DNA of 64,000 nucleotides from Lingula anatina (Eukaryota > Animalia > Brachiopoda). The stretch is taken from the NCBI GenBank assembly GCA_051362555.1, contig JBPQGU010000016.1, positions 6,138,001-6,202,000 on the forward strand, in the 5' to 3' direction. The position numbers and the translations under genes are program-made. The notes under the pieces were generated by a model. The model ran no database searches. It worked only from the letters and a program-made list of their open reading frames with translations, and was not told the DNA's origin. Shown here piece by piece: positions 14,345-43,904 of this stretch; the stretch's first letter is position 1, and every line of letters starts with the position of its first letter.

Positions 14345-14345
<1 letters not shown>

Positions 14346-14383
<38 letters not shown>

Positions 14384-14735
14384 GATTCTTATATGGCGCC
14401 TTACATTCTATCTCAAGGCGCCTTACAATAATGGCTAATATACTAAAATCATTAAAATGACTACAATATTTTAATCATAAACTCTCATTGGAAACCATTT
14501 AAAATTTACACTACTAAAAATCAATCTTATTTAAAAAAAAAAAAAACATATATATATTAAAATAAAATCTAAGAGATATAGACAGAATTAAAAAAAGTGG
14601 GTCTTTAAAAGAGATTTAAAATTGTCAAAGTCTTCTGTTTTCCTAATAAAATTTGGTAGACCATTCCACACATTTGGGGCGTAGATTATAAAAGCACGAT
14701 CTCCATAACTTTTTAGGCACCCCTTCTCTAAAAAG
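14346..14735 (-). mobile_element. 5'-truncated LINE (L2/CR1-group) 3' end
   Basis: Minus strand encodes YGDRAFIIYAPNVWNGLPNFIRKTEDFDNFKSLLKTHFF, typical of L2/CR1-group ORF2 C-termini. It has a (TTA)n tail and an 8-bp TSD CACTTACT (14338-14345 and 14736-14743). Confidence 0.85.
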
Positions 14736-16619
14736 CACTTACTGTTCTCAAACAGTACAGTAAATATGTACAGATGTGTCTCTACATATTGCCATCACCT
14801 GCATCTGTCGTTGCCGTCACTGTAGCTGTCGCCGGCGCCGTGCACTTTCATTGTAAACACGATAAGTGAAAGGCAGTTTTCCTTTTTGGCTGTATATTTA
14901 CAGAGCTGATGAATATTCATAAAACGCAGGTCAAGTTCGAAAATCAGCATGATGGGGCCATTATTGTAGAAGTTATACTGTTTTTTCACTTTTCAGCATA
15001 TATGCAACACTGTAAACACATTTCAAGGAAAACCGATAGGCCTGTTGTTATGCAACTCACAGGAGTAATTGATCTTACTATAACGCAGGTCAAATTCGAA
15101 AATCGGCATGATCGGGCCACTATTTTAGTAGTTATGCTTTTTTTTTTTCACTTTTCAGCATATATCCAACACTGTAAACACAAAATAAGAAAAACAGATA
15201 CACCAATTGTCATTAAACTCACAAGAGTGGTCATTCCTGCTAAAACGCAGGTTGAGTTCAAAAATCGGCATAATCGGGGCCATTATTTTGAAGAAATGCT
15301 GTTTTTTCACATTTCCTCAGATTCAATTCTTAGGCATGTTAACAGTCTCATTATTTAATTAATAAGATATGTAAAAGTGTTTGTTTGGCATTTCCTGCAT
15401 CTTTACAACATTATTAGTTGATTATGTAAAAATGATGGTAAGCTTGTTATCGTGTATTGTGTAATAAAGTTTCAAAAATATAAATAAACTCATATCATTG
15501 CAGTTTGTCAGATTCAATCATTCACTATGTTCAGAATCTCAGAATGGAAGAAATTGGACATTTAACACTGCTCTATTGATATTTTTCCCATCTCATCAAT
15601 TTTCTTAGTTGATCATATAAAAACGGCAGTAAACTGTTAATTTTGTTTTATGTTAAAAATTGTTAAAAATGGGAAAAAAAAATATTTCAGAACAGTGCTG
15701 TCTTGTTTGCATTTTGACATTTTCAAGTTGTGGCTTTAAAGTTCCATGGGCCTGAAGACCTTTGTTAGTCTCATTTTCTGAATATCCATTATACTAATAT
15801 TTTATTATCAAAATTGATGGTCATTATGCTGTTAAACATTATGTAATATTGCATCAAAATTTGAAAAAAAAACTATTTTGGGCACTGATCCCATGATGAC
15901 CATTTAAGAAAAACCATGTCACTTACTGTTCTCAAACTTACAGGAAAGAAACATGGGACTAAAATACAGCTTCAGTAGGCAATGCAATCTGTTTGGTAAT
16001 TCTTATTGCCAGTTAAACAGTTTTTTTGTGAAAATTTAATTTTTCACTTATTGGCATTTTCAAGGTGTGACTTTGAAGTTCCACGGGCTTGAAGACCCAT
16101 GCTAGTCACATTTTTTGAAAATCCATGATACGTATATTTTATTATTAAAAATTGACGGTCATTATGCTGTTGACCATTACGTAATTTGGCATCAGAATAG
16201 AAGAAAACACAATTTTGGGTGCTGCTGCCATGATGACCATTATGGGAAAACCATGTTACTTATGATTGCCAAACTTTCAAAATAGAAATATAGGACTAAA
16301 ATGCAGCCTGAGTTGGAAAAGCAGTCTAATTGGCTTCTTTTTCTGGAAGTTATACATTTTCAAAGTGTGAACTTTTTACACATATTACTTACATTGGTAT
16401 TACCTGTTGAGCATAATTAAAATTTGATGTTGAATTTGCAGTTTAATATAATGTACTTTTGCATCAGAATTGACAGTAGCCTATTTTGTGCAAAGTTATT
16501 TCCTGTTTTTTGTCTGTACATTTGACAGCTTTGCTGCCTTGTTGTTATTTCAATTAATTTCTTCCATACAAAATTTATGACACATTATCATAACACAAAA
16601 AATTAACAAAGCTACACCC

Positions 16620-23730: not shown

Positions 23731-25615
23731 AAGTGTTGGGGGTGGTCGGCTCATGTGTTGGGGGTGGTCGGCTCATGCCCTAGTTAGATTCCACTTTACC
23801 AAAATAACACGATTCAGAGCTGGGCCTCTGAGGACGTGTATTTTGACAGCGCCCCTTGCATGATTGAGAGCGACTTTTTGAGTGTGTAAGGCTTCTCGCC
23901 TTTATTATGAGGAAAGATCGTCTCTGATAGGAGGGTAGGTGTCTCACCTACATAGTATGAGATTTATAGATACCGATCTACATAGGGTGCCCTGAAAAGG
24001 GCATTTCGTGATTGGCACGATCGAGGCGTCTCGCCTTTCGAGGGAGGGGGGAGGGTGGACTGGTTGCAGAAAGCGCTTTTCGGTCAACAAGTGACCTTCA
24101 TCAGCTGCAGAGTCCGAGATAAAAAAAAAAGGAAAATTTTGGGACGTAGGGGCTGGTAAGCAAAGGTGTCTCGCCTTTGTTTAGTAAGTTTTCATCAATG
24201 GTGTCTCGCCATTGTGAATGATACGAGCCATCTCGGCTTAAAGTATCATGCTTTGTTCAGTCAGTTTTCATCAATGGTGTCTCGCCATTGTGAATGATAC
24301 GAGCCATCTCGGCTTTATAGTATCATGCTTGATCACAAGTGTCTCGCTTGTGTCAAGGTGGACGGTATGAATTGAGCGTGTGAATGGCTCAAGAGTCGGT
24401 GGTCGACTGAGGATTTGTCGAAATTGTGTCAAGTGCGAGAACGAGGCCGGGGTCTGATTGGTTGTTTTAGTTATGAGTTTTGATTGGCTGTTCTCGTGGT
24501 GCATCTTGATCCTATCTGTTTAGTTGTAGTTTGTTTGGTTTCATATTTGGCAAGGTTTTTTAACCTCGGATCAAATTTATAGTATTCTAATGCTGTGCAT
24601 ATGCGTGTTAACACTGAGCTTTCATTTGCTTAGTTTGTCTGTATAGTTTTCGGGCACCTTTTTTAATTTTGGAAGGCTTTGTCCTTGTTGCTTAGAGTAA
24701 AGTGGAGAAGGCATCTCGCCTTTTATTTGCGATGTGTGTGTCTTAAAAATAGACTGTGCCCTGTAATCGTTTAAAATTTGGTCTAAGTGGAATTGGGGCA
24801 TTTTGCTTTATCTCCAGAATGACTTTTTTCTTTATTGATTATAAATAAGTGTGGGGAGGGCATCTCGCCCTTTATTAGCGGTGTGATTTATTGCGCTCTA
24901 TTAGAACATTCAGGTTTAGCTTTTCCTGGTAGAGATGGTTGGCCCTGAAAAGGGCCGTTTTTCGAGGACGTAGGACCAGTGGCTTCTATTTTACAGTGTA
25001 GCTTTCTTTGCTGAGGTCAATCTTCGTTTCACTTTGCTGGCTAGCACGCGGCTTTTCTTCTTGTCCTTCATCGCTAGAATGAGGAGTCTCATTTGCTCCA
25101 TGATCTGGTTGTTGGCGGTCGTTGTTGCTGAGGTTCGGTTTTCTGGCGCGTATACACCGTGGATGTTGAAGTGCTCTTCCGCCCTGGATTCTCTCTCTTC
25201 TGCCTTTGCTAAGCTTTCCTTAGCTTTGTCAACGAACGCTTGCGTGTGGGCCTCGATCAGAGATTTAAGATCCGTTGCGGCCTTGTCTTGTATGTTGATC
25301 ATTGCTGCCAAGAGGACGTCGTCATCGGGGCATCCCCTGAAGTCTACACGGCATCTCACATGGTGGGCGTTGTTGCCGAGTTGTTTGAGCAGGTGGTCTG
25401 CCCAGTCAGAGCAGCCTTTCAGGTAAGTTTTTGCTCTAACGACTTCGTCGTGGTAGGGATTCCCGTTGATTCCTGGAGGGCCGGCTGTAATTGGCGCTGG
25501 TCTCTTGGGAATTCTCGCCCTGGGTGGTGCAGTGCTATGCCAGTTTTTTGATTCCATTTTTCTAGGTCCTTTCCATTCTCTAGGAGATCGTTTTCCTCTA
25601 AAACTTGTTTGTTTG
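23731..25615 (-). mobile_element. Diverged inverted partial copy of the 2575-bp hammerhead element (ORF to 3' end)
   Basis: Reverse complement aligns to the array unit with scattered substitutions and lacks one ~150-bp internal subrepeat. It ends in a tandemly duplicated 22-mer (23734-23777). Confidence 0.9.
24065..24109 (-). ncRNA. Minimal type-I hammerhead ribozyme
   Basis: Minus strand reads UGCAG-CUGAUGA-A-GGUCA-CUUGU-UGACC-GAAA-AGCGCU-UU-CUGCA. It is identical to the array copies although the flanks have diverged. Confidence 0.85.
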
Positions 25616-25638
25616 AGTGTTGGGGGTGGTGGGCTCAT
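24991..25638 (-). CDS. Basic/coiled-coil protein, diverged paralogue of the array ORF (likely start ATG at 25557, 188 aa)
   Basis: Aligns without gaps to the 209-aa array ORF with about 20 substitutions. The first ~9 codons come from across the junction at ~25615. Confidence 0.7.
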   Translation of the reverse strand: MSPPPPTLKQTSFRGKRSPREWKGPRKMESKNWHSTAPPRARIPKRPAPITAGPPGINGNPYHDEVVRAKTYLKGCSDWADHLLKQLGNNAHHVRCRVDFRGCPDDDVLLAAMINIQDKAATDLKSLIEAHTQAFVDKAKESLAKAEERESRAEEHFNIHGVYAPENRTSATTTANNQIMEQMRLLILAMKDKKKSRVLASKVKRRLTSAKKATL

Positions 25639-26084
25639 GACCTAGTTAGATTCCACTTTACCAGAATAACACGATTCAGAGCTGGGCCTCTGAGGACGTG
25701 TATTTTTACAGCGCCCCTTGCAGAGTAGACAGCGGCTCTTAGAGTGTGTTAGGCTTTTCGCCTTTATTATGAGAACCACTTGTCTTAGATAGGAAGGTAG
25801 GTGTCTCGCCTGCCTGGTATGAGATACATAGTCACTTATATATGTAGGGTGCCCTGAAAAGGACATTCCGTGCTGAGTAGAGAGCGACTCTTAGAGTGTG
25901 TTAGGCTTCTCGCCTTTATTATAGGGAAAGAGCGTCTAAATATAAGAGAGTAGGTGTCTCGCCTACTTCGTATGAGATTTATAGATACCGATCTACACAG
26001 GGGGCCCTGAAAAGGGCATTTCGTGATTGGCACAATAGAGGCGTCTCGCCTGTCGAGGGAAGGGGGAGGGTGGACTGGTTGCAG
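25616..26084 (-). mobile_element. Inverted 469-bp segment running from the ribozyme cleavage site to the element 3' end (pseudo-LTR-like)
   Basis: Reverse complement of 26694-27162; no differences seen by eye. Confidence 0.9.
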
Positions 26085-26653
26085 CCTTCCAAAATTAAAA
26101 GAGGTGCCCGAAACCTATACAGACCATCCCGGCAAATGAAAATTCAGTGTTAACACGCAAATGCACAGCATAAGAATACTAATAAATTTGATCCGAGGTT
26201 AAAAAACCTTGCCAAAAATGAAACCAAATAAACTACATCTAAACAGATAGGATCAAGATACACCACGAGAACAGCCAATCAAAACTCATAACTGAAACAA
26301 CCAATCAGATCGCGGCCTCGTTCTCGATTTGACACAATTTCAACAAATCCTCAGTCGACCTCCGACTCTTGAGCCATTCACACGCTCGATTCATACCGTC
26401 CACTTTGACACAAGCGAGACACTTGTGATCAAGCATGTTACTATAAAGCCGAGATGGCTTGTATCATTCACAATGGCGAGACACCATTGATGAAAATCAC
26501 TAAACAAAGCATGATACTTAAAAGCCGAGATGGCCCGTATCATCCACAATGGCGAGACACCATTGATGAAAACTTACTAAACAAAGGCGAGACACCTTTG
26601 CTTACCAGCCCTTACGTCCCTAAATTTTTCCTTTTTTTTCTTGAATCGGACTC

Positions 26654-26698
26654 TGCAGCTGATGAAGGTCACTTGTTGACCGAAAAGCGCTTTCTGCA
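26654..26698 (+). ncRNA. Minimal type-I hammerhead ribozyme (unit 1); predicted cleavage after 26693
   Basis: Stem I TGCAG/CTGCA; core CTGATGA plus one extra A; stem II GGTCA/TGACC; GAAA; palindromic stem III AAGCGCTT; UUU triplet. Confidence 0.85.
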
Positions 26699-27717
26699 AC
26701 CAGTCCACCCTCCCCCTTCCCTCGACAGGCGAGACGCCTCTATTGTGCCAATCACGAAATGCCCTTTTCAGGGCCCCCTGTGTAGATCGGTATCTATAAA
26801 TCTCATACGAAGTAGGCGAGACACCTACTCTCTTATATTTAGACGCTCTTTCCCTATAATAAAGGCGAGAAGCCTAACACACTCTAAGAGTCGCTCTCTA
26901 CTCAGCACGGAATGTCCTTTTCAGGGCACCCTACATATATAAGTGACTATGTATCTCATACCAGGCAGGCGAGACACCTACCTTCCTATCTAAGACAAGT
27001 GGTTCTCATAATAAAGGCGAAAAGCCTAACACACTCTAAGAGCCGCTGTCTACTCTGCAAGGGGCGCTGTAAAAATACACGTCCTCAGAGGCCCAGCTCT
27101 GAATCGTGTTATTCTGGTAAAGTGGAATCTAACTAGGTCATGAGCCCACCACCCCCAACACTTAAGCTATTTGGCCCTGGGGCCGGCCGCAATGTGGGAC
27201 TGTCCGAACCGGGAACCGTCCCTTAACACTGGTTATTTTGTAGCTAGTGTTTTGGGTACTGGCGTGACGGGGTTTTTTCTGCTTTATCAGAACACGCCTT
27301 AACCTACGGATCACAAGAAACAAAATGATCTATGTACCTAAATACACGAACATATGATAATGATAATCACATACCACGTAGGCGAGACAACTACGTTCCT
27401 ATTACTCACTAGGGAACAATAGTAATAATCAAGAAAACCTGACAAACAACCACTAAAACCAAAATTTACACTTGTCGGGGGATTCTGTGCATACATTCTT
27501 GAATAGTCAAGACATAAGACACCGGACAATGGCTTGACAATCAGCCAATCACAAAGCTCCTTAATGACACACTTTTAGAACCAACGGGAAGCACACAACA
27601 CCACATAGCTCCTTAACGTCGGTGCTCCCCTCAGCAGGGTGTATACTTAAAGCAGCACACTCTCAATGGAAGGCATAAGTCTGGCAATACAGCAATTTCT
27701 TTCACAACGCGCTCACT

Positions 27718-28347
27718 ATGTATCATCAAACAAGTATCAGAGGAAAACGATCTCCTAGGGAATGGAAAAAACCTAGAAAAATGGAATCAAAAATCTGGCA
27801 TAGCACTGCACCACCCAGGGGGAGAATCCCCAAGAGACCGGCGCCAATTACAGCCGGCCCCCCAGGAGTCAACGGCAACCCCTACCACGACGAAGTCGTC
27901 AGAACAAAAGCTTACCTGAAAGGCTGCTCTGACTGGGCGGATCACATGCTCACACAACTCAGCAACAACGCCCACCATGTCAGATGCCGTGTAGACTTCA
28001 GGGGGTGCCCTGATGACGACATCCTTCTGGCAGCAATGATCAACATACAAGACAAGGCCGCAACGGAGCTTAAATCCGCGATCGAGGCCCACACGCAAGC
28101 TTTCGTAGACAAAGCTAAGGAAAGCTTAGCAAAGGCAGAAGAGAGGGAATCCAGGGCGGAAGAGCACTTCAACATCCACGGCGTGTACACGCCAGGAAAC
28201 CAACCCTCTACTTCAACGACCACAAACAACCAGATCATGGAGCAAATGAGACTCCTCATTCTCGCCATGAAGGACAAGAAGAAGAGCCGCGTGCTAGCCA
28301 GCAAAGTGAAACGAAGACTAACCTCAGCCAAGAAAACTACACTGTAA
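27718..28347 (+). CDS. 209-aa basic/coiled-coil protein of unknown function (unit 1; second ATG at 27781)
   Basis: Intact ORF; Arg/Lys/Pro-rich N-terminus, helical central region, Lys/Arg-rich C-terminus; frame conserved in the diverged copy. Confidence 0.7.
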   Translation: MYHQTSIRGKRSPREWKKPRKMESKIWHSTAPPRGRIPKRPAPITAGPPGVNGNPYHDEVVRTKAYLKGCSDWADHMLTQLSNNAHHVRCRVDFRGCPDDDILLAAMINIQDKAATELKSAIEAHTQAFVDKAKESLAKAEERESRAEEHFNIHGVYTPGNQPSTSTTTNNQIMEQMRLLILAMKDKKKSRVLASKVKRRLTSAKKTTL

Positions 28348-29228
28348 AATAGAAGCCACTGCTTCTACGTCCTCGGGAAAAACGGCCCTTTTCAGGGCCA
28401 CCCATTTCTACCAGGAAAAGCCAAACCTGAATGTTCAAATAGAGCGCAAAAATGCAAATAAAAGGCGAGATGCCTTCCCCACACTTATTTATAATCAATA
28501 AAGAAAAGAAAAGTCATTCTGGAGATAAAGCAAAATGCCATAATCTCACTTAGACCAAATTTTAAACACTTACAGGGCACGATCGACTTATAAGACACAA
28601 ACATCGCAAATAAAAGGCGAGATGATATCTCAGTTTATTTATAAGCAACAAGGAAAAAGCCTTCCAAAATTAAAAGAGGTGCCCGAAACCTATACAGACC
28701 ATCCCGGCAAATGAAAATTCAGTGTTAACACGCAAATGCACAGCATAAGAATACTAATAAATTTGATCCGAGGTTAAAAAACCTTGCCAAAAATGAAACC
28801 AAATAAACTACATCTAAACAGATAGGATCAAGATACACCACGAGAACAGCCAATCAAAACTCATAACTGAAACAACCAATCAGATCGCGGCCTCGTTCTC
28901 GATTTGACACAATTTCAACAAATCCTCAGTCGACCTCCGACTCTTGAGCCATTCACACGCTCGATTCATACCGTCCACTTTGACACAAGCGAGACACTTG
29001 TGATCAAGCATGTTACTATAAAGCCGAGATGGCTTGTATCATTCACAATGGCGAGACACCATTGATGAAAATCACTAAACAAAGCATGATACTTAAAAGC
29101 CGAGATGGCCCGTATCATCCACAATGGCGAGACACCATTGATGAAAACTTACTAAACAAAGGCGAGACACCTTTGCTTACCAGCCCTTACGTCCCTAAAT
29201 TTTTCCTTTTTTTTCTTGAATCGGACTC

Positions 29229-29273
29229 TGCAGCTGATGAAGGTCACTTGTTGACCGAAAAGCGCTTTCTGCA
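29229..29273 (+). ncRNA. Minimal hammerhead ribozyme (unit 2)
   Basis: Identical to 26654-26698. Confidence 0.85.
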
Positions 29274-30292
29274 ACCAGTCCACCCTCCCCCTTCCCTCGA
29301 CAGGCGAGACGCCTCTATTGTGCCAATCACGAAATGCCCTTTTCAGGGCCCCCTGTGTAGATCGGTATCTATAAATCTCATACGAAGTAGGCGAGACACC
29401 TACTCTCTTATATTTAGACGCTCTTTCCCTATAATAAAGGCGAGAAGCCTAACACACTCTAAGAGTCGCTCTCTACTCAGCACGGAATGTCCTTTTCAGG
29501 GCACCCTACATATATAAGTGACTATGTATCTCATACCAGGCAGGCGAGACACCTACCTTCCTATCTAAGACAAGTGGTTCTCATAATAAAGGCGAAAAGC
29601 CTAACACACTCTAAGAGCCGCTGTCTACTCTGCAAGGGGCGCTGTAAAAATACACGTCCTCAGAGGCCCAGCTCTGAATCGTGTTATTCTGGTAAAGTGG
29701 AATCTAACTAGGTCATGAGCCCACCACCCCCAACACTTAAGCTATTTGGCCCTGGGGCCGGCCGCAATGTGGGACTGTCCGAACCGGGAACCGTCCCTTA
29801 ACACTGGTTATTTTGTAGCTAGTGTTTTGGGTACTGGCGTGACGGGTTTTTTTCTGCTTTATCAGAACACGCCTTAACCTACGGATCACAAGAAACAAAA
29901 TGATCTATGTACCTAAATACACGAACATATGATAATGATAATCACATACCACGTAGGCGAGACAACTACGTTCCTATTACTCACTAGGGAACAATAGTAA
30001 TAATCAAGAAAACCTGACAAACAACCACTAAAACCAAAATTTACACTTGTCGGGGGATTCTGTGCATACATTCTTGAATAGTCAAGACATAAGACACCGG
30101 ACAATGGCTTGACAATCAGCCAATCACAAAGCTCCTTAATGACACACTTTTAGAACCAACGGGAAGCACACAACACCACATAGCTCCTTAACGTCGGTGC
30201 TCCCCTCAGCAGGGTGTATACTTAAAGCAGCACACTCTCAATGGAAGGCATAAGTCTGGCAATACAGCAATTTCTTTCACAACGCGCTCACT

Positions 30293-30922
30293 ATGTATCA
30301 TCAAACAAGTATCAGAGGAAAACGATCTCCTAGGGAATGGAAAAAACCTAGAAAAATGGAATCAAAAAACTGGCATAGCACTGCACCACCCAGGGGGAGA
30401 ATCCCCAAGAGACCGGCGCCAATTACAGCCGGCCCCCCAGGAGTCAACGGCAACCCCTACCACGACGAAGTCGTCAGAACAAAAGCTTACCTGAAAGGCT
30501 GCTCTGACTGGGCGGATCACATGCTCACACAACTCAGCAACAACGCCCACCATGTCAGATGCCGTGTAGACTTCAGGGGGTGCCCTGATGACGACATCCT
30601 TCTGGCAGCAATGATCAACATACAAGACAAGGCCGCAACGGAGCTTAAATCCGCGATCGAGGCCCACACGCAAGCTTTCGTAGACAAAGCTAAGGAAAGC
30701 TTAGCAAAGGCAGAAGAGAGGGAATCCAGGGCGGAAGAGCACTTCAACATCCACGGCGTGTACACGCCAGGAAACCAACCCTCTACTTCAACGACCACAA
30801 ACAACCAGATCATGGAGCAAATGAGACTCCTCATTCTCGCCATGAAGGACAAGAAGAAGAGCCGCGTGCTAGCCAGCAAAGTGAAACGAAGACTAACCTC
30901 AGCCAAGAAAACTACACTGTAA
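30293..30922 (+). CDS. 209-aa basic/coiled-coil protein (unit 2)
   Basis: Repeat copy; differs from unit 1 by one residue (N versus I at position 26). Confidence 0.7.
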   Translation: MYHQTSIRGKRSPREWKKPRKMESKNWHSTAPPRGRIPKRPAPITAGPPGVNGNPYHDEVVRTKAYLKGCSDWADHMLTQLSNNAHHVRCRVDFRGCPDDDILLAAMINIQDKAATELKSAIEAHTQAFVDKAKESLAKAEERESRAEEHFNIHGVYTPGNQPSTSTTTNNQIMEQMRLLILAMKDKKKSRVLASKVKRRLTSAKKTTL

Positions 30923-31803
30923 AATAGAAGCCACTGCTTCTACGTCCTCGGGAAAAACGGCCCTTTTCAGGGCCACCCATTTCTACCAGGAAAAGCCAAA
31001 CCTGAATGTTCAAATAGAGCGCAAAAATGCAAATAAAAGGCGAGATGCCTTCCCCACACTTATTTATAATCAATAAAGAAAAGAAAAGTCATTCTGGAGA
31101 TAAAGCAAAATGCCATAATCTCACTTAGACCAAATTTTAAACACTTACAGGGCACGATCGACTTATAAGACACAAACATCGCAAATAAAAGGCGAGATGA
31201 TATCTCAGTTTATTTATAAGCAACAAGGAAAAAGCCTTCCAAAATTAAAAGAGGTGCCCGAAACCTATACAGACCATCCCGGCAAATGAAAATTCAGTGT
31301 TAACACGCAAATGCACAGCATAAGAATACTAATAAATTTGATCCGAGGTTAAAAAACCTTGCCAAAAATGAAACCAAATAAACTACATCTAAACAGATAG
31401 GATCAAGATACACCACGAGAACAGCCAATCAAAACTCATAACTGAAACAACCAATCAGATCGCGGCCTCGTTCTCGATTTGACACAATTTCAACAAATCC
31501 TCAGTCGACCTCCGACTCTTGAGCCATTCACACGCTCGATTCATACCGTCCACTTTGACACAAGCGAGACACTTGTGATCAAGCATGTTACTATAAAGCC
31601 GAGATGGCTTGTATCATTCACAATGGCGAGACACCATTGATGAAAATCACTAAACAAAGCATGATACTTAAAAGCCGAGATGGCCCGTATCATCCACAAT
31701 GGCGAGACACCATTGATGAAAACTTACTAAACAAAGGCGAGACACCTTTGCTTACCAGCCCTTACGTCCCTAAATTTTTCCTTTTTTTTCTTGAATCGGA
31801 CTC

Positions 31804-31848
31804 TGCAGCTGATGAAGGTCACTTGTTGACCGAAAAGCGCTTTCTGCA
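31804..31848 (+). ncRNA. Minimal hammerhead ribozyme (unit 3)
   Basis: Identical to 26654-26698. Confidence 0.85.
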
Positions 31849-32867
31849 ACCAGTCCACCCTCCCCCTTCCCTCGACAGGCGAGACGCCTCTATTGTGCCA
31901 ATCACGAAATGCCCTTTTCAGGGCCCCCTGTGTAGATCGGTATCTATAAATCTCATACGAAGTAGGCGAGACACCTACTCTCTTATATTTAGACGCTCTT
32001 TCCCTATAATAAAGGCGAGAAGCCTAACACACTCTAAGAGTCGCTCTCTACTCAGCACGGAATGTCCTTTTCAGGGCACCCTACATATATAAGTGACTAT
32101 GTATCTCATACCAGGCAGGCGAGACACCTACCTTCCTATCTAAGACAAGTGGTTCTCATAATAAAGGCGAAAAGCCTAACACACTCTAAGAGCCGCTGTC
32201 TACTCTGCAAGGGGCGCTGTAAAAATACACGTCCTCAGAGGCCCAGCTCTGAATCGTGTTATTCTGGTAAAGTGGAATCTAACTAGGTCATGAGCCCACC
32301 ACCCCCAACACTTAAGCTATTTGGCCCTGGGGCCGGCCGCAATGTGGGACTGTCCGAACCGGGAACCGTCCCTTAACACTGGTTATTTTGTAGCTAGTGT
32401 TTTGGGTACTGGCGTGACGGGGTTTTTTCTGCTTTATCAGAACACGCCTTAACCTACGGATCACAAGAAACAAAATGATCTATGTACCTAAATACACGAA
32501 CATATGATAATGATAATCACATACCACGTAGGCGAGACAACTACGTTCCTATTACTCACTAGGGAACAATAGTAATAATCAAGAAAACCTGACAAACAAC
32601 CACTAAAACCAAAATTTACACTTGTCGGGGGATTCTGTGCATACATTCTTGAATAGTCAAGACATAAGACACCGGACAATGGCTTGACAATCAGCCAATC
32701 ACAAAGCTCCTTAATGACACACTTTTAGAACCAACGGGAAGCACACAACACCACATAGCTCCTTAACGTCGGTGCTCCCCTCAGCAGGGTGTATACTTAA
32801 AGCAGCACACTCTCAATGGAAGGCATAAGTCTGGCAATACAGCAATTTCTTTCACAACGCGCTCACT

Positions 32868-33497
32868 ATGTATCATCAAACAAGTATCAGAGGAAAACGA
32901 TCTCCTAGGGAATGGAAAAAACCTAGAAAAATGGAATCAAAAAACTGGCATAGCACTGCACCACCCAGGGGGAGAATCCCCAAGAGACCGGCGCCAATTA
33001 CAGCCGGCCCCCCAGGAGTCAACGGCAACCCCTACCACGACGAAGTCGTCAGAACAAAAGCTTACCTGAAAGGCTGCTCTGACTGGGCGGATCACATGCT
33101 CACACAACTCAGCAACAACGCCCACCATGTCAGATGCCGTGTAGACTTCAGGGGGTGCCCTGATGACGACATCCTTCTGGCAGCAATGATCAACATACAA
33201 GACAAGGCCGCAACGGAGCTTAAATCCGCGATCGAGGCCCACACGCAAGCTTTCGTAGACAAAGCTAAGGAAAGCTTAGCAAAGGCAGAAGAGAGGGAAT
33301 CCAGGGCGGAAGAGCACTTCAACATCCACGGCGTGTACACGCCAGGAAACCAACCCTCTACTTCAACGACCACAAACAACCAGATCATGGAGCAAATGAG
33401 ACTCCTCATTCTCGCCATGAAGGACAAGAAGAAGAGCCGCGTGCTAGCCAGCAAAGTGAAACGAAGACTAACCTCAGCCAAGAAAACTACACTGTAA
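32868..33497 (+). CDS. 209-aa basic/coiled-coil protein (unit 3)
   Basis: Repeat copy. Confidence 0.7.
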   Translation: MYHQTSIRGKRSPREWKKPRKMESKNWHSTAPPRGRIPKRPAPITAGPPGVNGNPYHDEVVRTKAYLKGCSDWADHMLTQLSNNAHHVRCRVDFRGCPDDDILLAAMINIQDKAATELKSAIEAHTQAFVDKAKESLAKAEERESRAEEHFNIHGVYTPGNQPSTSTTTNNQIMEQMRLLILAMKDKKKSRVLASKVKRRLTSAKKTTL

Positions 33498-34378
33498 AAT
33501 AGAAGCCACTGCTTCTACGTCCTCGGGAAAAACGGCCCTTTTCAGGGCCACCCATTTCTACCAGGAAAAGCCAAACCTGAATGTTCAAATAGAGCGCAAA
33601 AATGCAAATAAAAGGCGAGATGCCTTCCCCACACTTATTTATAATCAATAAAGAAAAGAAAAGTCATTCTGGAGATAAAGCAAAATGCCATAATCTCACT
33701 TAGACCAAATTTTAAACACTTACAGGGCACGATCGACTTATAAGACACAAACATCGCAAATAAAAGGCGAGATGATATCTCAGTTTATTTATAAGCAACA
33801 AGGAAAAAGCCTTCCAAAATTAAAAGAGGTGCCCGAAACCTATACAGACCATCCCGGCAAATGAAAATTCAGTGTTAACACGCAAATGCACAGCATAAGA
33901 ATACTAATAAATTTGATCCGAGGTTAAAAAACCTTGCCAAAAATGAAACCAAATAAACTACATCTAAACAGATAGGATCAAGATACACCACGAGAACAGC
34001 CAATCAAAACTCATAACTGAAACAACCAATCAGATCGCGGCCTCGTTCTCGATTTGACACAATTTCAACAAATCCTCAGTCGACCTCCGACTCTTGAGCC
34101 ATTCACACGCTCGATTCATACCGTCCACTTTGACACAAGCGAGACACTTGTGATCAAGCATGTTACTATAAAGCCGAGATGGCTTGTATCATTCACAATG
34201 GCGAGACACCATTGATGAAAATCACTAAACAAAGCATGATACTTAAAAGCCGAGATGGCCCGTATCATCCACAATGGCGAGACACCATTGATGAAAACTT
34301 ACTAAACAAAGGCGAGACACCTTTGCTTACCAGCCCTTACGTCCCTAAATTTTTCCTTTTTTTTCTTGAATCGGACTC

Positions 34379-34423
34379 TGCAGCTGATGAAGGTCACTTG
34401 TTGACCGAAAAGCGCTTTCTGCA
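34379..34423 (+). ncRNA. Minimal hammerhead ribozyme (unit 4)
   Basis: Identical to 26654-26698. Confidence 0.85.
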
Positions 34424-35442
34424 ACCAGTCCACCCTCCCCCTTCCCTCGACAGGCGAGACGCCTCTATTGTGCCAATCACGAAATGCCCTTTTCAGGGCC
34501 CCCTGTGTAGATCGGTATCTATAAATCTCATACGAAGTAGGCGAGACACCTACTCTCTTATATTTAGACGCTCTTTCCCTATAATAAAGGCGAGAAGCCT
34601 AACACACTCTAAGAGTCGCTCTCTACTCAGCACGGAATGTCCTTTTCAGGGCACCCTACATATATAAGTGACTATGTATCTCATACCAGGCAGGCGAGAC
34701 ACCTACCTTCCTATCTAAGACAAGTGGTTCTCATAATAAAGGCGAAAAGCCTAACACACTCTAAGAGCCGCTGTCTACTCTGCAAGGGGCGCTGTAAAAA
34801 TACACGTCCTCAGAGGCCCAGCTCTGAATCGTGTTATTCTGGTAAAGTGGAATCTAACTAGGTCATGAGCCCACCACCCCCAACACTTAAGCTATTTGGC
34901 CCTGGGGCCGGCCGCAATGTGGGACTGTCCGAACCGGGAACCGTCCCTTAACACTGGTTATTTTGTAGCTAGTGTTTTGGGTACTGGCGTGACGGGGTTT
35001 TTTCTGCTTTATCAGAACACGCCTTAACCTACGGATCACAAGAAACAAAATGATCTATGTACCTAAATACACGAACATATGATAATGATAATCACATACC
35101 ACGTAGGCGAGACAACTACGTTCCTATTACTCACTAGGGAACAATAGTAATAATCAAGAAAACCTGACAAACAACCACTAAAACCAAAATTTACACTTGT
35201 CGGGGGATTCTGTGCATACATTCTTGAATAGTCAAGACATAAGACACCGGACAATGGCTTGACAATCAGCCAATCACAAAGCTCCTTAATGACACACTTT
35301 TAGAACCAACGGGAAGCACACAACACCACATAGCTCCTTAACGTCGGTGCTCCCCTCAGCAGGGTGTATACTTAAAGCAGCACACTCTCAATGGAAGGCA
35401 TAAGTCTGGCAATACAGCAATTTCTTTCACAACGCGCTCACT

Positions 35443-36072
35443 ATGTATCATCAAACAAGTATCAGAGGAAAACGATCTCCTAGGGAATGGAAAAAACCTA
35501 GAAAAATGGAATCAAAAAACTGGCATAGCACTGCACCACCCAGGGGGAGAATCCCCAAGAGACCGGCGCCAATTACAGCCGGCCCCCCAGGAGTCAACGG
35601 CAACCCCTACCACGACGAAGTCGTCAGAACAAAAGCTTACCTGAAAGGCTGCTCTGACTGGGCGGATCACATGCTCACACAACTCAGCAACAACGCCCAC
35701 CATGTCAGATGCCGTGTAGACTTCAGGGGGTGCCCTGATGACGACATCCTTCTGGCAGCAATGATCAACATACAAGACAAGGCCGCAACGGAGCTTAAAT
35801 CCGCGATCGAGGCCCACACGCAAGCTTTCGTAGACAAAGCTAAGGAAAGCTTAGCAAAGGCAGAAGAGAGGGAATCCAGGGCGGAAGAGCACTTCAACAT
35901 CCACGGCGTGTACACGCCAGGAAACCAACCCTCTACTTCAACGACCACAAACAACCAGATCATGGAGCAAATGAGACTCCTCATTCTCGCCATGAAGGAC
36001 AAGAAGAAGAGCCGCGTGCTAGCCAGCAAAGTGAAACGAAGACTAACCTCAGCCAAGAAAACTACACTGTAA
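35443..36072 (+). CDS. 209-aa basic/coiled-coil protein (unit 4)
   Basis: Repeat copy. Confidence 0.7.
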   Translation: MYHQTSIRGKRSPREWKKPRKMESKNWHSTAPPRGRIPKRPAPITAGPPGVNGNPYHDEVVRTKAYLKGCSDWADHMLTQLSNNAHHVRCRVDFRGCPDDDILLAAMINIQDKAATELKSAIEAHTQAFVDKAKESLAKAEERESRAEEHFNIHGVYTPGNQPSTSTTTNNQIMEQMRLLILAMKDKKKSRVLASKVKRRLTSAKKTTL

Positions 36073-36953
36073 AATAGAAGCCACTGCTTCTACGTCCTCG
36101 GGAAAAACGGCCCTTTTCAGGGCCACCCATTTCTACCAGGAAAAGCCAAACCTGAATGTTCAAATAGAGCGCAAAAATGCAAATAAAAGGCGAGATGCCT
36201 TCCCCACACTTATTTATAATCAATAAAGAAAAGAAAAGTCATTCTGGAGATAAAGCAAAATGCCATAATCTCACTTAGACCAAATTTTAAACACTTACAG
36301 GGCACGATCGACTTATAAGACACAAACATCGCAAATAAAAGGCGAGATGATATCTCAGTTTATTTATAAGCAACAAGGAAAAAGCCTTCCAAAATTAAAA
36401 GAGGTGCCCGAAACCTATACAGACCATCCCGGCAAATGAAAATTCAGTGTTAACACGCAAATGCACAGCATAAGAATACTAATAAATTTGATCCGAGGTT
36501 AAAAAACCTTGCCAAAAATGAAACCAAATAAACTACATCTAAACAGATAGGATCAAGATACACCACGAGAACAGCCAATCAAAACTCATAACTGAAACAA
36601 CCAATCAGATCGCGGCCTCGTTCTCGATTTGACACAATTTCAACAAATCCTCAGTCGACCTCCGACTCTTGAGCCATTCACACGCTCGATTCATACCGTC
36701 CACTTTGACACAAGCGAGACACTTGTGATCAAGCATGTTACTATAAAGCCGAGATGGCTTGTATCATTCACAATGGCGAGACACCATTGATGAAAATCAC
36801 TAAACAAAGCATGATACTTAAAAGCCGAGATGGCCCGTATCATCCACAATGGCGAGACACCATTGATGAAAACTTACTAAACAAAGGCGAGACACCTTTG
36901 CTTACCAGCCCTTACGTCCCTAAATTTTTCCTTTTTTTTCTTGAATCGGACTC

Positions 36954-36998
36954 TGCAGCTGATGAAGGTCACTTGTTGACCGAAAAGCGCTTTCTGCA
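36954..36998 (+). ncRNA. Minimal hammerhead ribozyme (unit 5)
   Basis: Identical to 26654-26698. Confidence 0.85.
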
Positions 36999-38017
36999 AC
37001 CAGTCCACCCTCCCCCTTCCCTCGACAGGCGAGACGCCTCTATTGTGCCAATCACGAAATGCCCTTTTCAGGGCCCCCTGTGTAGATCGGTATCTATAAA
37101 TCTCATACGAAGTAGGCGAGACACCTACTCTCTTATATTTAGACGCTCTTTCCCTATAATAAAGGCGAGAAGCCTAACACACTCTAAGAGTCGCTCTCTA
37201 CTCAGCACGGAATGTCCTTTTCAGGGCACCCTACATATATAAGTGACTATGTATCTCATACCAGGCAGGCGAGACACCTACCTTCCTATCTAAGACAAGT
37301 GGTTCTCATAATAAAGGCGAAAAGCCTAACACACTCTAAGAGCCGCTGTCTACTCTGCAAGGGGCGCTGTAAAAATACACGTCCTCAGAGGCCCAGCTCT
37401 GAATCGTGTTATTCTGGTAAAGTGGAATCTAACTAGGTCATGAGCCCACCACCCCCAACACTTAAGCTATTTGGCCCTGGGGCCGGCCGCAATGTGGGAC
37501 TGTCCGAACCGGGAACCGTCCCTTAACACTGGTTATTTTGTAGCTAGTGTTTTGGGTACTGGCGTGACGGGGTTTTTTCTGCTTTATCAGAACACGCCTT
37601 AACCTACGGATCACAAGAAACAAAATGATCTATGTACCTAAATACACGAACATATGATAATGATAATCACATACCACGTAGGCGAGACAACTACGTTCCT
37701 ATTACTCACTAGGGAACAATAGTAATAATCAAGAAAACCTGACAAACAACCACTAAAACCAAAATTTACACTTGTCGGGGGATTCTGTGCATACATTCTT
37801 GAATAGTCAAGACATAAGACACCGGACAATGGCTTGACAATCAGCCAATCACAAAGCTCCTTAATGACACACTTTTAGAACCAACGGGAAGCACACAACA
37901 CCACATAGCTCCTTAACGTCGGTGCTCCCCTCAGCAGGGTGTATACTTAAAGCAGCACACTCTCAATGGAAGGCATAAGTCTGGCAATACAGCAATTTCT
38001 TTCACAACGCGCTCACT

Positions 38018-38647
38018 ATGTATCATCAAACAAGTATCAGAGGAAAACGATCTCCTAGGGAATGGAAAAAACCTAGAAAAATGGAATCAAAAAACTGGCA
38101 TAGCACTGCACCACCCAGGGGGAGAATCCCCAAGAGACCGGCGCCAATTACAGCCGGCCCCCCAGGAGTCAACGGCAACCCCTACCACGACGAAGTCGTC
38201 AGAACAAAAGCTTACCTGAAAGGCTGCTCTGACTGGGCGGATCACATGCTCACACAACTCAGCAACAACGCCCACCATGTCAGATGCCGTGTAGACTTCA
38301 GGGGGTGCCCTGATGACGACATCCTTCTGGCAGCAATGATCAACATACAAGACAAGGCCGCAACGGAGCTTAAATCCGCGATCGAGGCCCACACGCAAGC
38401 TTTCGTAGACAAAGCTAAGGAAAGCTTAGCAAAGGCAGAAGAGAGGGAATCCAGGGCGGAAGAGCACTTCAACATCCACGGCGTGTACACGCCAGGAAAC
38501 CAACCCTCTACTTCAACGACCACAAACAACCAGATCATGGAGCAAATGAGACTCCTCATTCTCGCCATGAAGGACAAGAAGAAGAGCCGCGTGCTAGCCA
38601 GCAAAGTGAAACGAAGACTAACCTCAGCCAAGAAAACTACACTGTAA
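38018..38647 (+). CDS. 209-aa basic/coiled-coil protein (unit 5)
   Basis: Repeat copy. Confidence 0.7.
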   Translation: MYHQTSIRGKRSPREWKKPRKMESKNWHSTAPPRGRIPKRPAPITAGPPGVNGNPYHDEVVRTKAYLKGCSDWADHMLTQLSNNAHHVRCRVDFRGCPDDDILLAAMINIQDKAATELKSAIEAHTQAFVDKAKESLAKAEERESRAEEHFNIHGVYTPGNQPSTSTTTNNQIMEQMRLLILAMKDKKKSRVLASKVKRRLTSAKKTTL

Positions 38648-39528
38648 AATAGAAGCCACTGCTTCTACGTCCTCGGGAAAAACGGCCCTTTTCAGGGCCA
38701 CCCATTTCTACCAGGAAAAGCCAAACCTGAATGTTCAAATAGAGCGCAAAAATGCAAATAAAAGGCGAGATGCCTTCCCCACACTTATTTATAATCAATA
38801 AAGAAAAGAAAAGTCATTCTGGAGATAAAGCAAAATGCCATAATCTCACTTAGACCAAATTTTAAACACTTACAGGGCACGATCGACTTATAAGACACAA
38901 ACATCGCAAATAAAAGGCGAGATGATATCTCAGTTTATTTATAAGCAACAAGGAAAAAGCCTTCCAAAATTAAAAGAGGTGCCCGAAACCTATACAGACC
39001 ATCCCGGCAAATGAAAATTCAGTGTTAACACGCAAATGCACAGCATAAGAATACTAATAAATTTGATCCGAGGTTAAAAAACCTTGCCAAAAATGAAACC
39101 AAATAAACTACATCTAAACAGATAGGATCAAGATACACCACGAGAACAGCCAATCAAAACTCATAACTGAAACAACCAATCAGATCGCGGCCTCGTTCTC
39201 GATTTGACACAATTTCAACAAATCCTCAGTCGACCTCCGACTCTTGAGCCATTCACACGCTCGATTCATACCGTCCACTTTGACACAAGCGAGACACTTG
39301 TGATCAAGCATGTTACTATAAAGCCGAGATGGCTTGTATCATTCACAATGGCGAGACACCATTGATGAAAATCACTAAACAAAGCATGATACTTAAAAGC
39401 CGAGATGGCCCGTATCATCCACAATGGCGAGACACCATTGATGAAAACTTACTAAACAAAGGCGAGACACCTTTGCTTACCAGCCCTTACGTCCCTAAAT
39501 TTTTCCTTTTTTTTCTTGAATCGGACTC

Positions 39529-39573
39529 TGCAGCTGATGAAGGTCACTTGTTGACCGAAAAGCGCTTTCTGCA
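39529..39573 (+). ncRNA. Minimal hammerhead ribozyme (unit 6)
   Basis: Identical to 26654-26698. Confidence 0.85.
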
Positions 39574-40592
39574 ACCAGTCCACCCTCCCCCTTCCCTCGA
39601 CAGGCGAGACGCCTCTATTGTGCCAATCACGAAATGCCCTTTTCAGGGCCCCCTGTGTAGATCGGTATCTATAAATCTCATACGAAGTAGGCGAGACACC
39701 TACTCTCTTATATTTAGACGCTCTTTCCCTATAATAAAGGCGAGAAGCCTAACACACTCTAAGAGTCGCTCTCTACTCAGCACGGAATGTCCTTTTCAGG
39801 GCACCCTACATATATAAGTGACTATGTATCTCATACCAGGCAGGCGAGACACCTACCTTCCTATCTAAGACAAGTGGTTCTCATAATAAAGGCGAAAAGC
39901 CTAACACACTCTAAGAGCCGCTGTCTACTCTGCAAGGGGCGCTGTAAAAATACACGTCCTCAGAGGCCCAGCTCTGAATCGTGTTATTCTGGTAAAGTGG
40001 AATCTAACTAGGTCATGAGCCCACCACCCCCAACACTTAAGCTATTTGGCCCTGGGGCCGGCCGCAATGTGGGACTGTCCGAACCGGGAACCGTCCCTTA
40101 ACACTGGTTATTTTGTAGCTAGTGTTTTGGGTACTGGCGTGACGGGGTTTTTTCTGCTTTATCAGAACACGCCTTAACCTACGGATCACAAGAAACAAAA
40201 TGATCTATGTACCTAAATACACGAACATATGATAATGATAATCACATACCACGTAGGCGAGACAACTACGTTCCTATTACTCACTAGGGAACAATAGTAA
40301 TAATCAAGAAAACCTGACAAACAACCACTAAAACCAAAATTTACACTTGTCGGGGGATTCTGTGCATACATTCTTGAATAGTCAAGACATAAGACACCGG
40401 ACAATGGCTTGACAATCAGCCAATCACAAAGCTCCTTAATGACACACTTTTAGAACCAACGGGAAGCACACAACACCACATAGCTCCTTAACGTCGGTGC
40501 TCCCCTCAGCAGGGTGTATACTTAAAGCAGCACACTCTCAATGGAAGGCATAAGTCTGGCAATACAGCAATTTCTTTCACAACGCGCTCACT

Positions 40593-41222
40593 ATGTATCA
40601 TCAAACAAGTATCAGAGGAAAACGATCTCCTAGGGAATGGAAAAAACCTAGAAAAATGGAATCAAAAAACTGGCATAGCACTGCACCACCCAGGGGGAGA
40701 ATCCCCAAGAGACCGGCGCCAATTACAGCCGGCCCCCCAGGAGTCAACGGCAACCCCTACCACGACGAAGTCGTCAGAACAAAAGCTTACCTGAAAGGCT
40801 GCTCTGACTGGGCGGATCACATGCTCACACAACTCAGCAACAACGCCCACCATGTCAGATGCCGTGTAGACTTCAGGGGGTGCCCTGATGACGACATCCT
40901 TCTGGCAGCAATGATCAACATACAAGACAAGGCCGCAACGGAGCTTAAATCCGCGATCGAGGCCCACACGCAAGCTTTCGTAGACAAAGCTAAGGAAAGC
41001 TTAGCAAAGGCAGAAGAGAGGGAATCCAGGGCGGAAGAGCACTTCAACATCCACGGCGTGTACACGCCAGGAAACCAACCCTCTACTTCAACGACCACAA
41101 ACAACCAGATCATGGAGCAAATGAGACTCCTCATTCTCGCCATGAAGGACAAGAAGAAGAGCCGCGTGCTAGCCAGCAAAGTGAAACGAAGACTAACCTC
41201 AGCCAAGAAAACTACACTGTAA
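40593..41222 (+). CDS. 209-aa basic/coiled-coil protein (unit 6)
   Basis: Repeat copy. Confidence 0.7.
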   Translation: MYHQTSIRGKRSPREWKKPRKMESKNWHSTAPPRGRIPKRPAPITAGPPGVNGNPYHDEVVRTKAYLKGCSDWADHMLTQLSNNAHHVRCRVDFRGCPDDDILLAAMINIQDKAATELKSAIEAHTQAFVDKAKESLAKAEERESRAEEHFNIHGVYTPGNQPSTSTTTNNQIMEQMRLLILAMKDKKKSRVLASKVKRRLTSAKKTTL

Positions 41223-42103
41223 AATAGAAGCCACTGCTTCTACGTCCTCGGGAAAAACGGCCCTTTTCAGGGCCACCCATTTCTACCAGGAAAAGCCAAA
41301 CCTGAATGTTCAAATAGAGCGCAAAAATGCAAATAAAAGGCGAGATGCCTTCCCCACACTTATTTATAATCAATAAAGAAAAGAAAAGTCATTCTGGAGA
41401 TAAAGCAAAATGCCATAATCTCACTTAGACCAAATTTTAAACACTTACAGGGCACGATCGACTTATAAGACACAAACATCGCAAATAAAAGGCGAGATGA
41501 TATCTCAGTTTATTTATAAGCAACAAGGAAAAAGCCTTCCAAAATTAAAAGAGGTGCCCGAAACCTATACAGACCATCCCGGCAAATGAAAATTCAGTGT
41601 TAACACGCAAATGCACAGCATAAGAATACTAATAAATTTGATCCGAGGTTAAAAAACCTTGCCAAAAATGAAACCAAATAAACTACATCTAAACAGATAG
41701 GATCAAGATACACCACGAGAACAGCCAATCAAAACTCATAACTGAAACAACCAATCAGATCGCGGCCTCGTTCTCGATTTGACACAATTTCAACAAATCC
41801 TCAGTCGACCTCCGACTCTTGAGCCATTCACACGCTCGATTCATACCGTCCACTTTGACACAAGCGAGACACTTGTGATCAAGCATGTTACTATAAAGCC
41901 GAGATGGCTTGTATCATTCACAATGGCGAGACACCATTGATGAAAATCACTAAACAAAGCATGATACTTAAAAGCCGAGATGGCCCGTATCATCCACAAT
42001 GGCGAGACACCATTGATGAAAACTTACTAAACAAAGGCGAGACACCTTTGCTTACCAGCCCTTACGTCCCTAAATTTTTCCTTTTTTTTCTTGAATCGGA
42101 CTC

Positions 42104-42148
42104 TGCAGCTGATGAAGGTCACTTGTTGACCGAAAAGCGCTTTCTGCA
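42104..42148 (+). ncRNA. Minimal hammerhead ribozyme (unit 7)
   Basis: Identical to 26654-26698. Confidence 0.85.
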
Positions 42149-43167
42149 ACCAGTCCACCCTCCCCCTTCCCTCGACAGGCGAGACGCCTCTATTGTGCCA
42201 ATCACGAAATGCCCTTTTCAGGGCCCCCTGTGTAGATCGGTATCTATAAATCTCATACGAAGTAGGCGAGACACCTACTCTCTTATATTTAGACGCTCTT
42301 TCCCTATAATAAAGGCGAGAAGCCTAACACACTCTAAGAGTCGCTCTCTACTCAGCACGGAATGTCCTTTTCAGGGCACCCTACATATATAAGTGACTAT
42401 GTATCTCATACCAGGCAGGCGAGACACCTACCTTCCTATCTAAGACAAGTGGTTCTCATAATAAAGGCGAAAAGCCTAACACACTCTAAGAGCCGCTGTC
42501 TACTCTGCAAGGGGCGCTGTAAAAATACACGTCCTCAGAGGCCCAGCTCTGAATCGTGTTATTCTGGTAAAGTGGAATCTAACTAGGTCATGAGCCCACC
42601 ACCCCCAACACTTAAGCTATTTGGCCCTGGGGCCGGCCGCAATGTGGGACTGTCCGAACCGGGAACCGTCCCTTAACACTGGTTATTTTGTAGCTAGTGT
42701 TTTGGGTACTGGCGTGACGGGGTTTTTTCTGCTTCATCAGAACACGCCTTAACCTACGGATCACAAGAAACAAAATGATCTATGTACCTAAATACACGAA
42801 CATATGATAATGATAATCACATACCACGTAGGCGAGACAACTACGTTCCTATTACTCACTAGGGAACAATAGTAATAATCAAGAAAACCTGACAAACAAC
42901 CACTAAAACCAAAATTTACACTTGTCGGGGGATTCTGTGCATACATTCTTGAATAGTCAAGACATAAGACACCGGACAATGGCTTGACAATCAGCCAATC
43001 ACAAAGCTCCTTAATGACACACTTTTAGAACCAACGGGAAGCACACAACACCACATAGCTCCTTAACGTCGGTGCTCCCCTCAGCAGGGTGTATACTTAA
43101 AGCAGCACACTCTCAATGGAAGGCATAAGTCTGGCAATACAGCAATTTCTTTCACAACGCGCTCACT

Positions 43168-43796
43168 ATGTATCATCAAACAAGTATCAGAGGAAAACGA
43201 TCTCCTAGGGAATGGAAAAAACCTAGAAAAATGGAATCAAAAAACTGGCATAGCACTGCACCACCCAGGGGGAGAATCCCCAAGAGACCGGCGCCAATTA
43301 CAGCCGGCCCCCCAGGAGTCAACGGCAACCCCTACCACGACGAAGTCGTCAGAACAAAAGCTTACCTGAAAGGCTGCTCTGACTGGGCGGATCACATGCT
43401 CACACAACTCAGCAACAACGCCCACCATGTCAGATGCCGTGTAGACTTCAGGGGGTGCCCTGATGACGACATCCTTCTGGCAGCAATGATCAACATACAA
43501 GACAAGGCCGCAACGGAGCTTAATCCGCGATCGAGGCCCACACGCAAGCTTTCGTAGACAAAGCTAAGGAAAGCTTAGCAAAGGCAGAAGAGAGGGAATC
43601 CAGGGCGGAAGAGCACTTCAACATCCACGGCGTGTACACGCCAGGAAACCAACCCTCTACTTCAACGACCACAAACAACCAGATCATGGAGCAAATGAGA
43701 CTCCTCATTCTCGCCATGAAGGACAAGAAGAAGAGCCGCGTGCTAGCCAGCAAAGTGAAACGAAGACTAACCTCAGCCAAGAAAACTACACTGTAA
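43168..43796 (+). pseudogene. Frameshifted copy of the 209-aa ORF (unit 7)
   Basis: CTTAATCC instead of CTTAAATCC at ~43522, a 1-nt deletion; either a mutation or a sequencing error. Confidence 0.7.
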
Positions 43797-43904
43797 AATA
43801 GAAGCCACTGCTTCTACGTCCTCGGGAAAAACGGCCCTTTTCAGGGGTATTTTTGTGAATTTATGAAATTTTTGTAAGTTCATTGTTAAATGGTGAATGA
43901 CAGC

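Follow-up and report, generated by a model that had tools for sequence, protein, structure and literature searches.

A 64,000-nucleotide (nt) stretch of the genome of the brachiopod Lingula anatina (contig JBPQGU010000016.1; the window, in whose positions all coordinates are given, with + for the forward strand) contains a tandem array of a young 2,575-bp mobile element, and each unit carries a series of small hairpins that share one loop and differ in their stems. The hairpin array is confirmed. Because the stems covary beyond the conserved core, the evidence argues for selection on a fixed-loop hairpin rather than on a plain double-stranded word. Our best explanation, which we hold tentatively, is that each hairpin offers the element's RNA one more docking site for a copying protein that acts in trans, and that this protein is probably encoded by a helper Penelope-like element (PLE). 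The seven array units are more than 99.8% identical and were treated as a single observation. Independent evidence thus comes from a single unit, from a diverged copy that has 11 sites, and from variants, not phased, in public sequencing runs.

A motif scan of the unit (26083-28657) recovered 14 sites of the form C-GARAN-R preceded by G/C or AG, all on the + strand, and in 12 of them two to six Watson-Crick pairs lie immediately outside the 7-nt core (Table 1). An initial annotation of this DNA had counted about 13 hairpins per unit in one orientation, and the hairpins that it listed (26409, 26446, 26471, 26547, 26582, 26727, 26811, 26863, 27015 and 28462) are all present as placed. Its constant GAGAN loop is indeed fixed, in the exact form GARAN: GAGAC at eight sites, GAGAT at four, and GAGAA and GAAAA at one each. 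At site 27383 a G.A mismatch separates the core from six pairs, and site 28618, decayed in the main unit, is intact in the diverged copy (24718). In 1000 dinucleotide shuffles the 12 paired sites compare with a mean of 0.43 (maximum 4), and the 11 sites with at least three pairs with a mean of 0.11 (maximum 2). The word CGARANR occurs 16 times on the + strand of the unit and never on the other, and it is paired in 12 of those 16 cases versus 1 of 30 in 43.7 kb of flanking sequence. Eleven of the 14 hairpins fall within 26409-27027, around a predicted hammerhead ribozyme and just upstream of the element's fixed 3' end. No clean hairpin lies in the open reading frame (ORF), as had been claimed, although one weak look-alike is found there at 27818-27830.

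Two analyses bear out the earlier statement that the stems keep pairing while their sequences differ. When the arms of 17 distinct arm pairs, preselected for at least two pairs, were permuted, none of 20,000 permutations reached the observed 74 pairs (mean 52.4), and by position the signal was seen at positions 3-5 (p 0.008, 0.002 and 0.04). In a motif-selected set of 21 of 25 sites (20 distinct rows; four sites of the diverged copy that match the main unit exactly were omitted), both partners had changed in 24 cells, compared with 10.5 in shuffles, and 0 of 500 shuffles reached that value; these 20 hairpins are kin by duplication, so that the shuffle counts are not probabilities. Slid controls gave far fewer both-side changes. 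Beside the core, C-G replaces G-C in 4 of the 20 distinct hairpins. Most of the covariation emerges when hairpins within a single element are compared, and only one clean double change separates the two copies in the window. The compensatory change reported at 24857-24871 (AGGGC/GCCCT versus AAGGC/GCCTT) is present, as is the T-A variant that stands in place of a C.A closing pair at 23935-23951. A plain double-stranded GGCGAGA word, one of the cases that the annotation had named as fatal to its proposal, is disfavoured by this covariation. Comparison of the main unit with the diverged copy, at a synonymous divergence of 0.26, adds a second kind of evidence: a single change was seen among the 77 sites of the 7-nt cores, whereas other non-coding sequence changed at 84 of 853 (p 0.007). 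The sequence also contains a 153-bp duplicated module within 26727-27027 and a 76-bp duplication within hairpin cluster 1, and a 162-codon open frame at 26454-26942, which has no Pfam match and is probably incidental, spans hairpins and hammerhead.

Table 1. Features of the element and its neighbouring copies, in window coordinates.
Feature	Position	Strand	Basis or detail
Tandem array	26083..43846	+	6.9 units x 2,575 bp; units 99.87-100% identical
Inverted arm, 472 bp	25613..26084	-	99.8% identity to 26694-27165
Diverged 5'-truncated copy	23733..25611	-	85-92% identity by segment; ORF open; 11 hairpins
Hairpin core C positions	26415, 26450, 26477, 26526, 26553, 26588, 26730	+	Motif scan
Hairpin core C positions, continued	26817, 26866, 26970, 27018, 27383, 28466, 28618	+	Motif scan
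Hairpin cluster 1, six hairpins, including 76-bp duplication	26409..26600	+ (as listed)	May fold on either strand
Hairpin cluster 2, five hairpins, in 153-bp duplicated module	26727..27027	+	
Hairpin with G.A mismatch and six outer pairs	27376..27396	+	
Two hairpin sites 3' of histone stem-loop	28462..28629	+	28466 intact, 28618 decayed
Predicted type I hammerhead	26648..26706	+	CTGATGA 26659, stem II, GAAA 26682; sequence, fold, motif scan
Histone-stem-loop-like hairpin, first module copy	26760..26775	+	Sequence; Rfam without report
Histone-stem-loop-like hairpin, second module copy	26913..26928	+	Sequence; Rfam without report
3'-terminal module	27052..27165	+	Ends in A/C-rich stretch; arms end at 27165 and 27167
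ORF, 209 amino acids, orphan	27718..28347	+	Basic ends, predicted long helices
Histone mRNA 3' stem-loop	28384..28399	+	Rfam RF00032 at 28379-28423, 36.6 bits, gathering score 34

The setting of the hairpins is that of a dependent, Penelope-type element. A predicted type I hammerhead, which we assigned by its core consensus, is present with core and stems in every one of the near-identical tandem units. Its stem III is weak and palindromic, and cleavage is predicted to fall at 26693/26694; its core was found by motif scan on the + strand only, and its region shows no changes in 60 sites between the two copies. An Rfam scan reported no family for the hammerhead or for the fixed-loop hairpins. 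The tandem array is joined by an adjacent inverted 5'-truncated copy, which is the layout of PLE insertions; no more than 2 nt separate the start of the inverted 472-bp arm from the predicted cleavage site of the ribozyme, and a fixed 3' end lies downstream of the hammerhead. We place this end at 27165 because the arms end there and contig depth drops there: at 27164 depth falls 12-, 41- and 6-fold in three of four public DNA runs and is flat in the fourth, and the loose contig ends at 27164 are diverse. A search of the same runs for an optional tail of 30-40 bp found depth about halved in the 28-nt bin that immediately precedes the drop, possibly a contig-end effect. The diverged copy ends at about 27167 in unit coordinates, with an exact 22-bp duplication (23733-23777) that suggests a restart of reverse transcription. 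At its right end the array stops at unit position 2315, inside the histone-type stem-loop of unit 7; this is window position 43846, two bases before the stem-loop ends, as if a message processed or trimmed at the stem-loop had been copied. A Pfam scan of P0001, P0002 and the 162-residue frame gave no match, either to reverse transcriptase (RT) and GIY-YIG endonuclease or to any other family. Judged by its sequence the element is not an autonomous PLE, and because it lacks an RT of its own it would need a helper.

Relatives in the DNA runs carry the same parts in other combinations. Summed contig depth, which is not copy number, peaks over sections of cluster 1, over the hammerhead and over 27052-27163, in a profile that covers the hairpin, hammerhead and 3' regions and leaves the ORF outside. 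Among the 15 of 24 contig joints that were listed, some connect hairpin blocks, hammerhead and 3' module directly, in shorter relatives. High depth and direct joining of hairpin blocks are as expected for cis signals. Most hairpin-bearing relatives appear to lack the ORF, and for this reason we tilt toward a trans-acting protein as the partner of the hairpins. One joint in a single DNA run goes back 215 bases (26405-26619), which suggests that there are also tandem repeats made up of cluster 1 alone, lacking the hammerhead.

If the hairpins are docking sites, a simple sequence of events can be proposed. The unit would be transcribed on the + strand and the hammerhead would cut at 26693/26694. 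A protein would then bind the 11 hairpins of 26409-27027, just upstream of the fixed end, and reverse transcription would begin near 27165, with the histone stem-loop as a second starting point in the case of this insertion. Two primed copies may thus have started from two points, one halted at the ribozyme cut and the other circling the template. The seamless array could derive from a circular or read-through multimeric template, and later unequal exchange could also extend it. Many sites on one RNA would increase its share of a scarce helper enzyme. As to the partner, we lean toward the helper enzyme; the element's own basic ORF protein is possible but doubtful, and a host protein is unlikely. 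The initial annotation had read the hairpins as multivalent binding or packaging sites for the element's own protein or a helper RT. The selected hairpin and the absence of an RT from the element support that proposal in part, but the analogy with lambda boxB on which it drew is not supported, and the opposite strand had been overlooked.

Several observations weigh against docking on the sense RNA. Besides the kinship of the hairpins and the limits of the depth profile noted above, the stems are no better conserved than background: they changed between copies at 9 of 104 sites against 84 of 853, and whole hairpins compare with background at p 0.09. Among the nine stem changes are one double change, some at terminal pairs and those of a hairpin that has decayed. 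The scarcity of variants in hairpins speaks for docking (in 26380-27163, where hairpins make up 185 of 784 nt, only 1 of 37 listed variant sites from the four DNA runs falls in a hairpin), but it comes from a biased sample, the best 40 of 152 rows as picked by support. Decayed loops also occur in single contigs and reads. The window contains no helper PLE, nor was the element linked to one by sequence, and searches at the DNA level found no binding partner, helper or relative in another species. Related loci were absent from metagenome and viral contigs. One DNA pattern scan gave no matches and another a single isolated bacterial match; further scans gave at least 120 viral and at least 120 metagenome matches, none of those listed similar to the unit by blastn. 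As 93 of the 120 metagenome matches listed lack an extra pair, we regard these as chance occurrences that can serve as a control.

The most serious challenge comes from the antisense strand. It is possible, though on balance doubtful, that the hairpins fold in first-strand complementary DNA (cDNA) or antisense RNA, where the loop would be five bases long and pyrimidine-rich (NUYUC) with C-G, U.G or U-A as its closing pair, and are read in second-strand synthesis, integration or antisense control. The C.A closing pair named in the initial annotation is a mismatch on the sense strand, but in antisense the same position reads U.G and pairs. There the pentaloop is closed in every one of the 20 distinct hairpins (C-G in 13, U.G in six, U-A in one), giving a uniform loop size, whereas in sense the closing pair forms in 14 of 20. 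Outside the loop there are 21 G.U cells in antisense versus 2 in sense, and cluster 1 has a folding z of -6.5 in antisense versus -3.1 in sense; these counts, too, speak against the sense RNA. Site 26970 folds with a probability of 0.97 in antisense and 0.12 in sense, and the common variant 26460 T>C keeps pairing on the antisense strand only. Composition may account for part of this asymmetry. Because the + strand is A/C-rich, with chance A.C to G.T expected at about 2:1, and because C/T changes exceed A/G changes (28 to 15), chance A.C mismatches are the likelier kind. Outside the closing position the antisense G.U excess of 15 to 2 has p 0.047 at an expected 2:1 and 0.31 at 4:1, with the rows related to one another; with the inner loop pair counted it becomes 21 to 10, which matches the compositional expectation. 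CA and TG variants are moreover both decay products of CG. Other measures favour the sense RNA. In 17 of 20 hairpins the two end bases of its loop pair with each other as G-C or G.U, and its hairpin energies are the most uniform (coefficient of variation 0.13 vs 0.35). Mean local pairing probability is similar on the two strands and no higher in antisense (0.65 vs 0.73 for sense as RNA, 0.77 for both strands as DNA). The hammerhead and the histone stem-loop are both on the + strand. Among readings in which the hairpin is selected, we consider the sense RNA the somewhat more probable folding strand and the antisense strand a substantial but lesser candidate.

Other accounts would dispense with a hairpin-binding copying protein. 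The hairpins flank the hammerhead and the 3' module, have similar stability on the + strand and carry a GARA that matches the GNRA pattern, as might be expected of folding aids that keep an A/C-rich RNA locally folded for the ribozyme and the 3' end or that make loop-receptor contacts. Folding alone, however, does not need a near-invariant C-G-A-R-A in 14 places with different stems, and no repeated receptor motif was noticed, so that we think this improbable. Less probable again is that a transcription factor or endonuclease recognises GGCGAGAYRCC as double-stranded DNA and that the stems are incidental; the core is conserved while the stems change at the background rate, its CpG is retained in 11 of 12 cases, and CCAAT words lie upstream at 26275 and 26301, but a fixed DNA word does not predict covariation in the outer stem, including C-G for G-C in 4 of 20 hairpins. 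That the hairpins are a neutral outcome of duplication and of quasi-palindrome template switching during reverse transcription seems to us the least probable of all. Template switching can perfect inverted repeats, and several hairpins here were made by the 76-bp and 153-bp duplications; yet the core is conserved at a synonymous divergence of 0.26, and at least five different stems surround one loop in a strict orientation. It is tempting to speculate, finally, that the element is a protein-coding retrozyme, a ribozyme-processed and probably circular RNA parasite of PLEs that uses a histone-style message and whose own basic, helical protein coats the hairpins, on RNA or cDNA, in a satellite-like form of packaging. 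We consider this unlikely; if true, such packaging could also mobilise shorter relatives that lack the ORF.

The ORF is under purifying selection, with a ratio of nonsynonymous to synonymous divergence of 0.19 (p 1e-8). Its product has an isoelectric point of 10, with 13 lysines and arginines in residues 1-45 and 11 in residues 181-209, and structure prediction gives four helices at modest confidence (pLDDT 65). A HMMER search of 1.84 billion representatives returned a single distant homolog, P0003 (E 2.2e-6, 32%), on one contig. Word-index searches returned nothing for P0001 and only P0003 for the ORF alignment. The ORF had no match in Pfam or among PDB sequences and no usable match in the Atlas search; its best PHROGs hit reached only E 0.05, and Foldseek found no match at E 0.001 among PDB and viral structures. 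In unit 7 the ORF (43168-43557) has a 1-bp deletion near 43523 and an early stop.

A histone-type message end follows the ORF, in the form of a 16-nt stem-loop 37 nt after the stop codon. The stem-loop of the diverged copy scores 32 bits with RF00032, just under the gathering score of 34. A purine-rich run can be seen by eye about 12 nt downstream of the stem-loop, where RNA depth is too low for end mapping. Between the copies there are 0 changes in 32 stem-loop sites, a count that leaves out 26775; at the position equivalent to 26775 the diverged copy has an A, which completes the bottom pair of the stem-loop in the module. By consensus match, CCAAT words occur at 26275 and 26301, upstream of hairpin cluster 1, and a CCAAT and a TATA-like word (27545 and 27642) stand upstream of the ORF in an arrangement that recalls a histone-gene promoter. 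Four public RNA runs gave 11-109 reads each, mostly from diverged relatives and with no pile-up of ends; reads at least 99% alike numbered 13 and 9 in two runs. Two of the four libraries had been selected for poly(A), so that circular RNAs and messages of the histone type would be lost from them. RNA depth is zero at 28434-28605, 3' of the stem-loop, in all four runs, which hold too few reads for this to be interpreted.

Among known systems, the element appears to work like a metazoan retrozyme or a non-autonomous PLE. Metazoan non-LTR (non-long terminal repeat) retrozymes are described as non-coding units of 51-972 bp (bioRxiv 10.64898/2026.07.22.740005; PMC7761336; PMC7229834). They share with this element tandem units that each carry a type I hammerhead, a weak palindromic helix III and the lack of an RT, and most families have at most seven units, compared with 6.9 here. 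The present element differs in its 2,575-bp unit, selected 209-residue ORF and histone-type end, and in its repeated fixed-loop hairpin, which is not mentioned in the accessible text of those accounts (PMC7229834, PMC7761336, bioRxiv 10.64898/2026.07.22.740005). As it is neither non-coding nor short, it is outside the retrozyme definition. PLE insertions typically consist of tandem copies with an adjacent inverted 5'-truncated copy, and non-autonomous PLEs such as Chlamydomonas MRC1 form head-to-tail arrays (PMC8557442). Hammerheads in PLE repeats carry an unpaired base before stem II (PMC4209133). The enzyme of one PLE, studied in purified form, nicks both strands and extends them, requires an internal RNA motif and initiates internally in an AC-rich stem-loop (PMC11167929). 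Our element resembles MRC1 and PLE pseudo-LTRs in its head-to-tail copies, 5' truncation and adjacent inverted 5'-truncated copy, in the extra base before stem II of its hammerhead and in its fixed A/C-rich 3' end. It differs from them in the second arm ending at the histone stem-loop, the orphan ORF and the hairpin array, and no link leads from it to a named autonomous family. Terminons and Athena likewise combine PLE-type units, hammerheads, accessory coiled-coil ORFs and head-to-tail arrays; by description, the level at which we compared them, they encode an RT, reach 40 kb and attach to telomeres (PMC6431247), whereas this element has neither telomeric repeat nor RT.

The hairpins resemble lambda boxB in their short stem, in a purine-rich loop that begins with G and in a purine at loop position 3. 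However, the loop of boxB must be GNRNA and must be closed by U-A (PMC9830547, PMC12027372), and here the final loop base is C or U rather than A at 12 of 14 sites, above a closing pair of C-G or C.A. The likeness therefore fails: GNRNA is found in 2 of 14 loops and U-A closure in 0 of 14 in the main unit, with one U-A in 11 in the diverged copy, on a GAGAC loop. We also rejected a deltavirus-like or viroid-like agent, as the fold is 55% paired with 61 hairpin loops and not rod-like, and the hammerhead core is on the + strand only; Rfam found no other ribozyme type. A literature search for this combination of features, with subscription papers, supplements and Repbase or Dfam entries outside its scope, returned nothing relevant, and the family may already be catalogued in repeat databases.

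These results touch on how Penelope-like enzymes pick RNAs in trans and how retrozymes borrow them. A motif repeated 14-fold, with natural variants of stem and closing pair, is a ready mutational series for recognition tests, and the question of strand bears on whether a cDNA structure is used. What sets the element apart from described retrozymes is an encoded protein under selection and a histone-type mRNA end, which would allow the message to be stabilised and translated without poly(A).

The rest of the window holds other repeats. Matches to RT, RNase H, a Dam-like methyltransferase and a tyrosine recombinase lie in overlapping frames at 54347-58593, and from this domain set we read them as remnants of a DIRS1-like retrotransposon; we rejected it as evidence for a helper, as it has no DNA in common with the 2,575-bp unit. 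A dispersed repeat family (D1, D9, D14) of about 159-bp units at 1746-16360 and 58991-59971 is unrelated to the element. A minisatellite of 65-68-bp repeats (43862-44435) adjoins the right end of the array.

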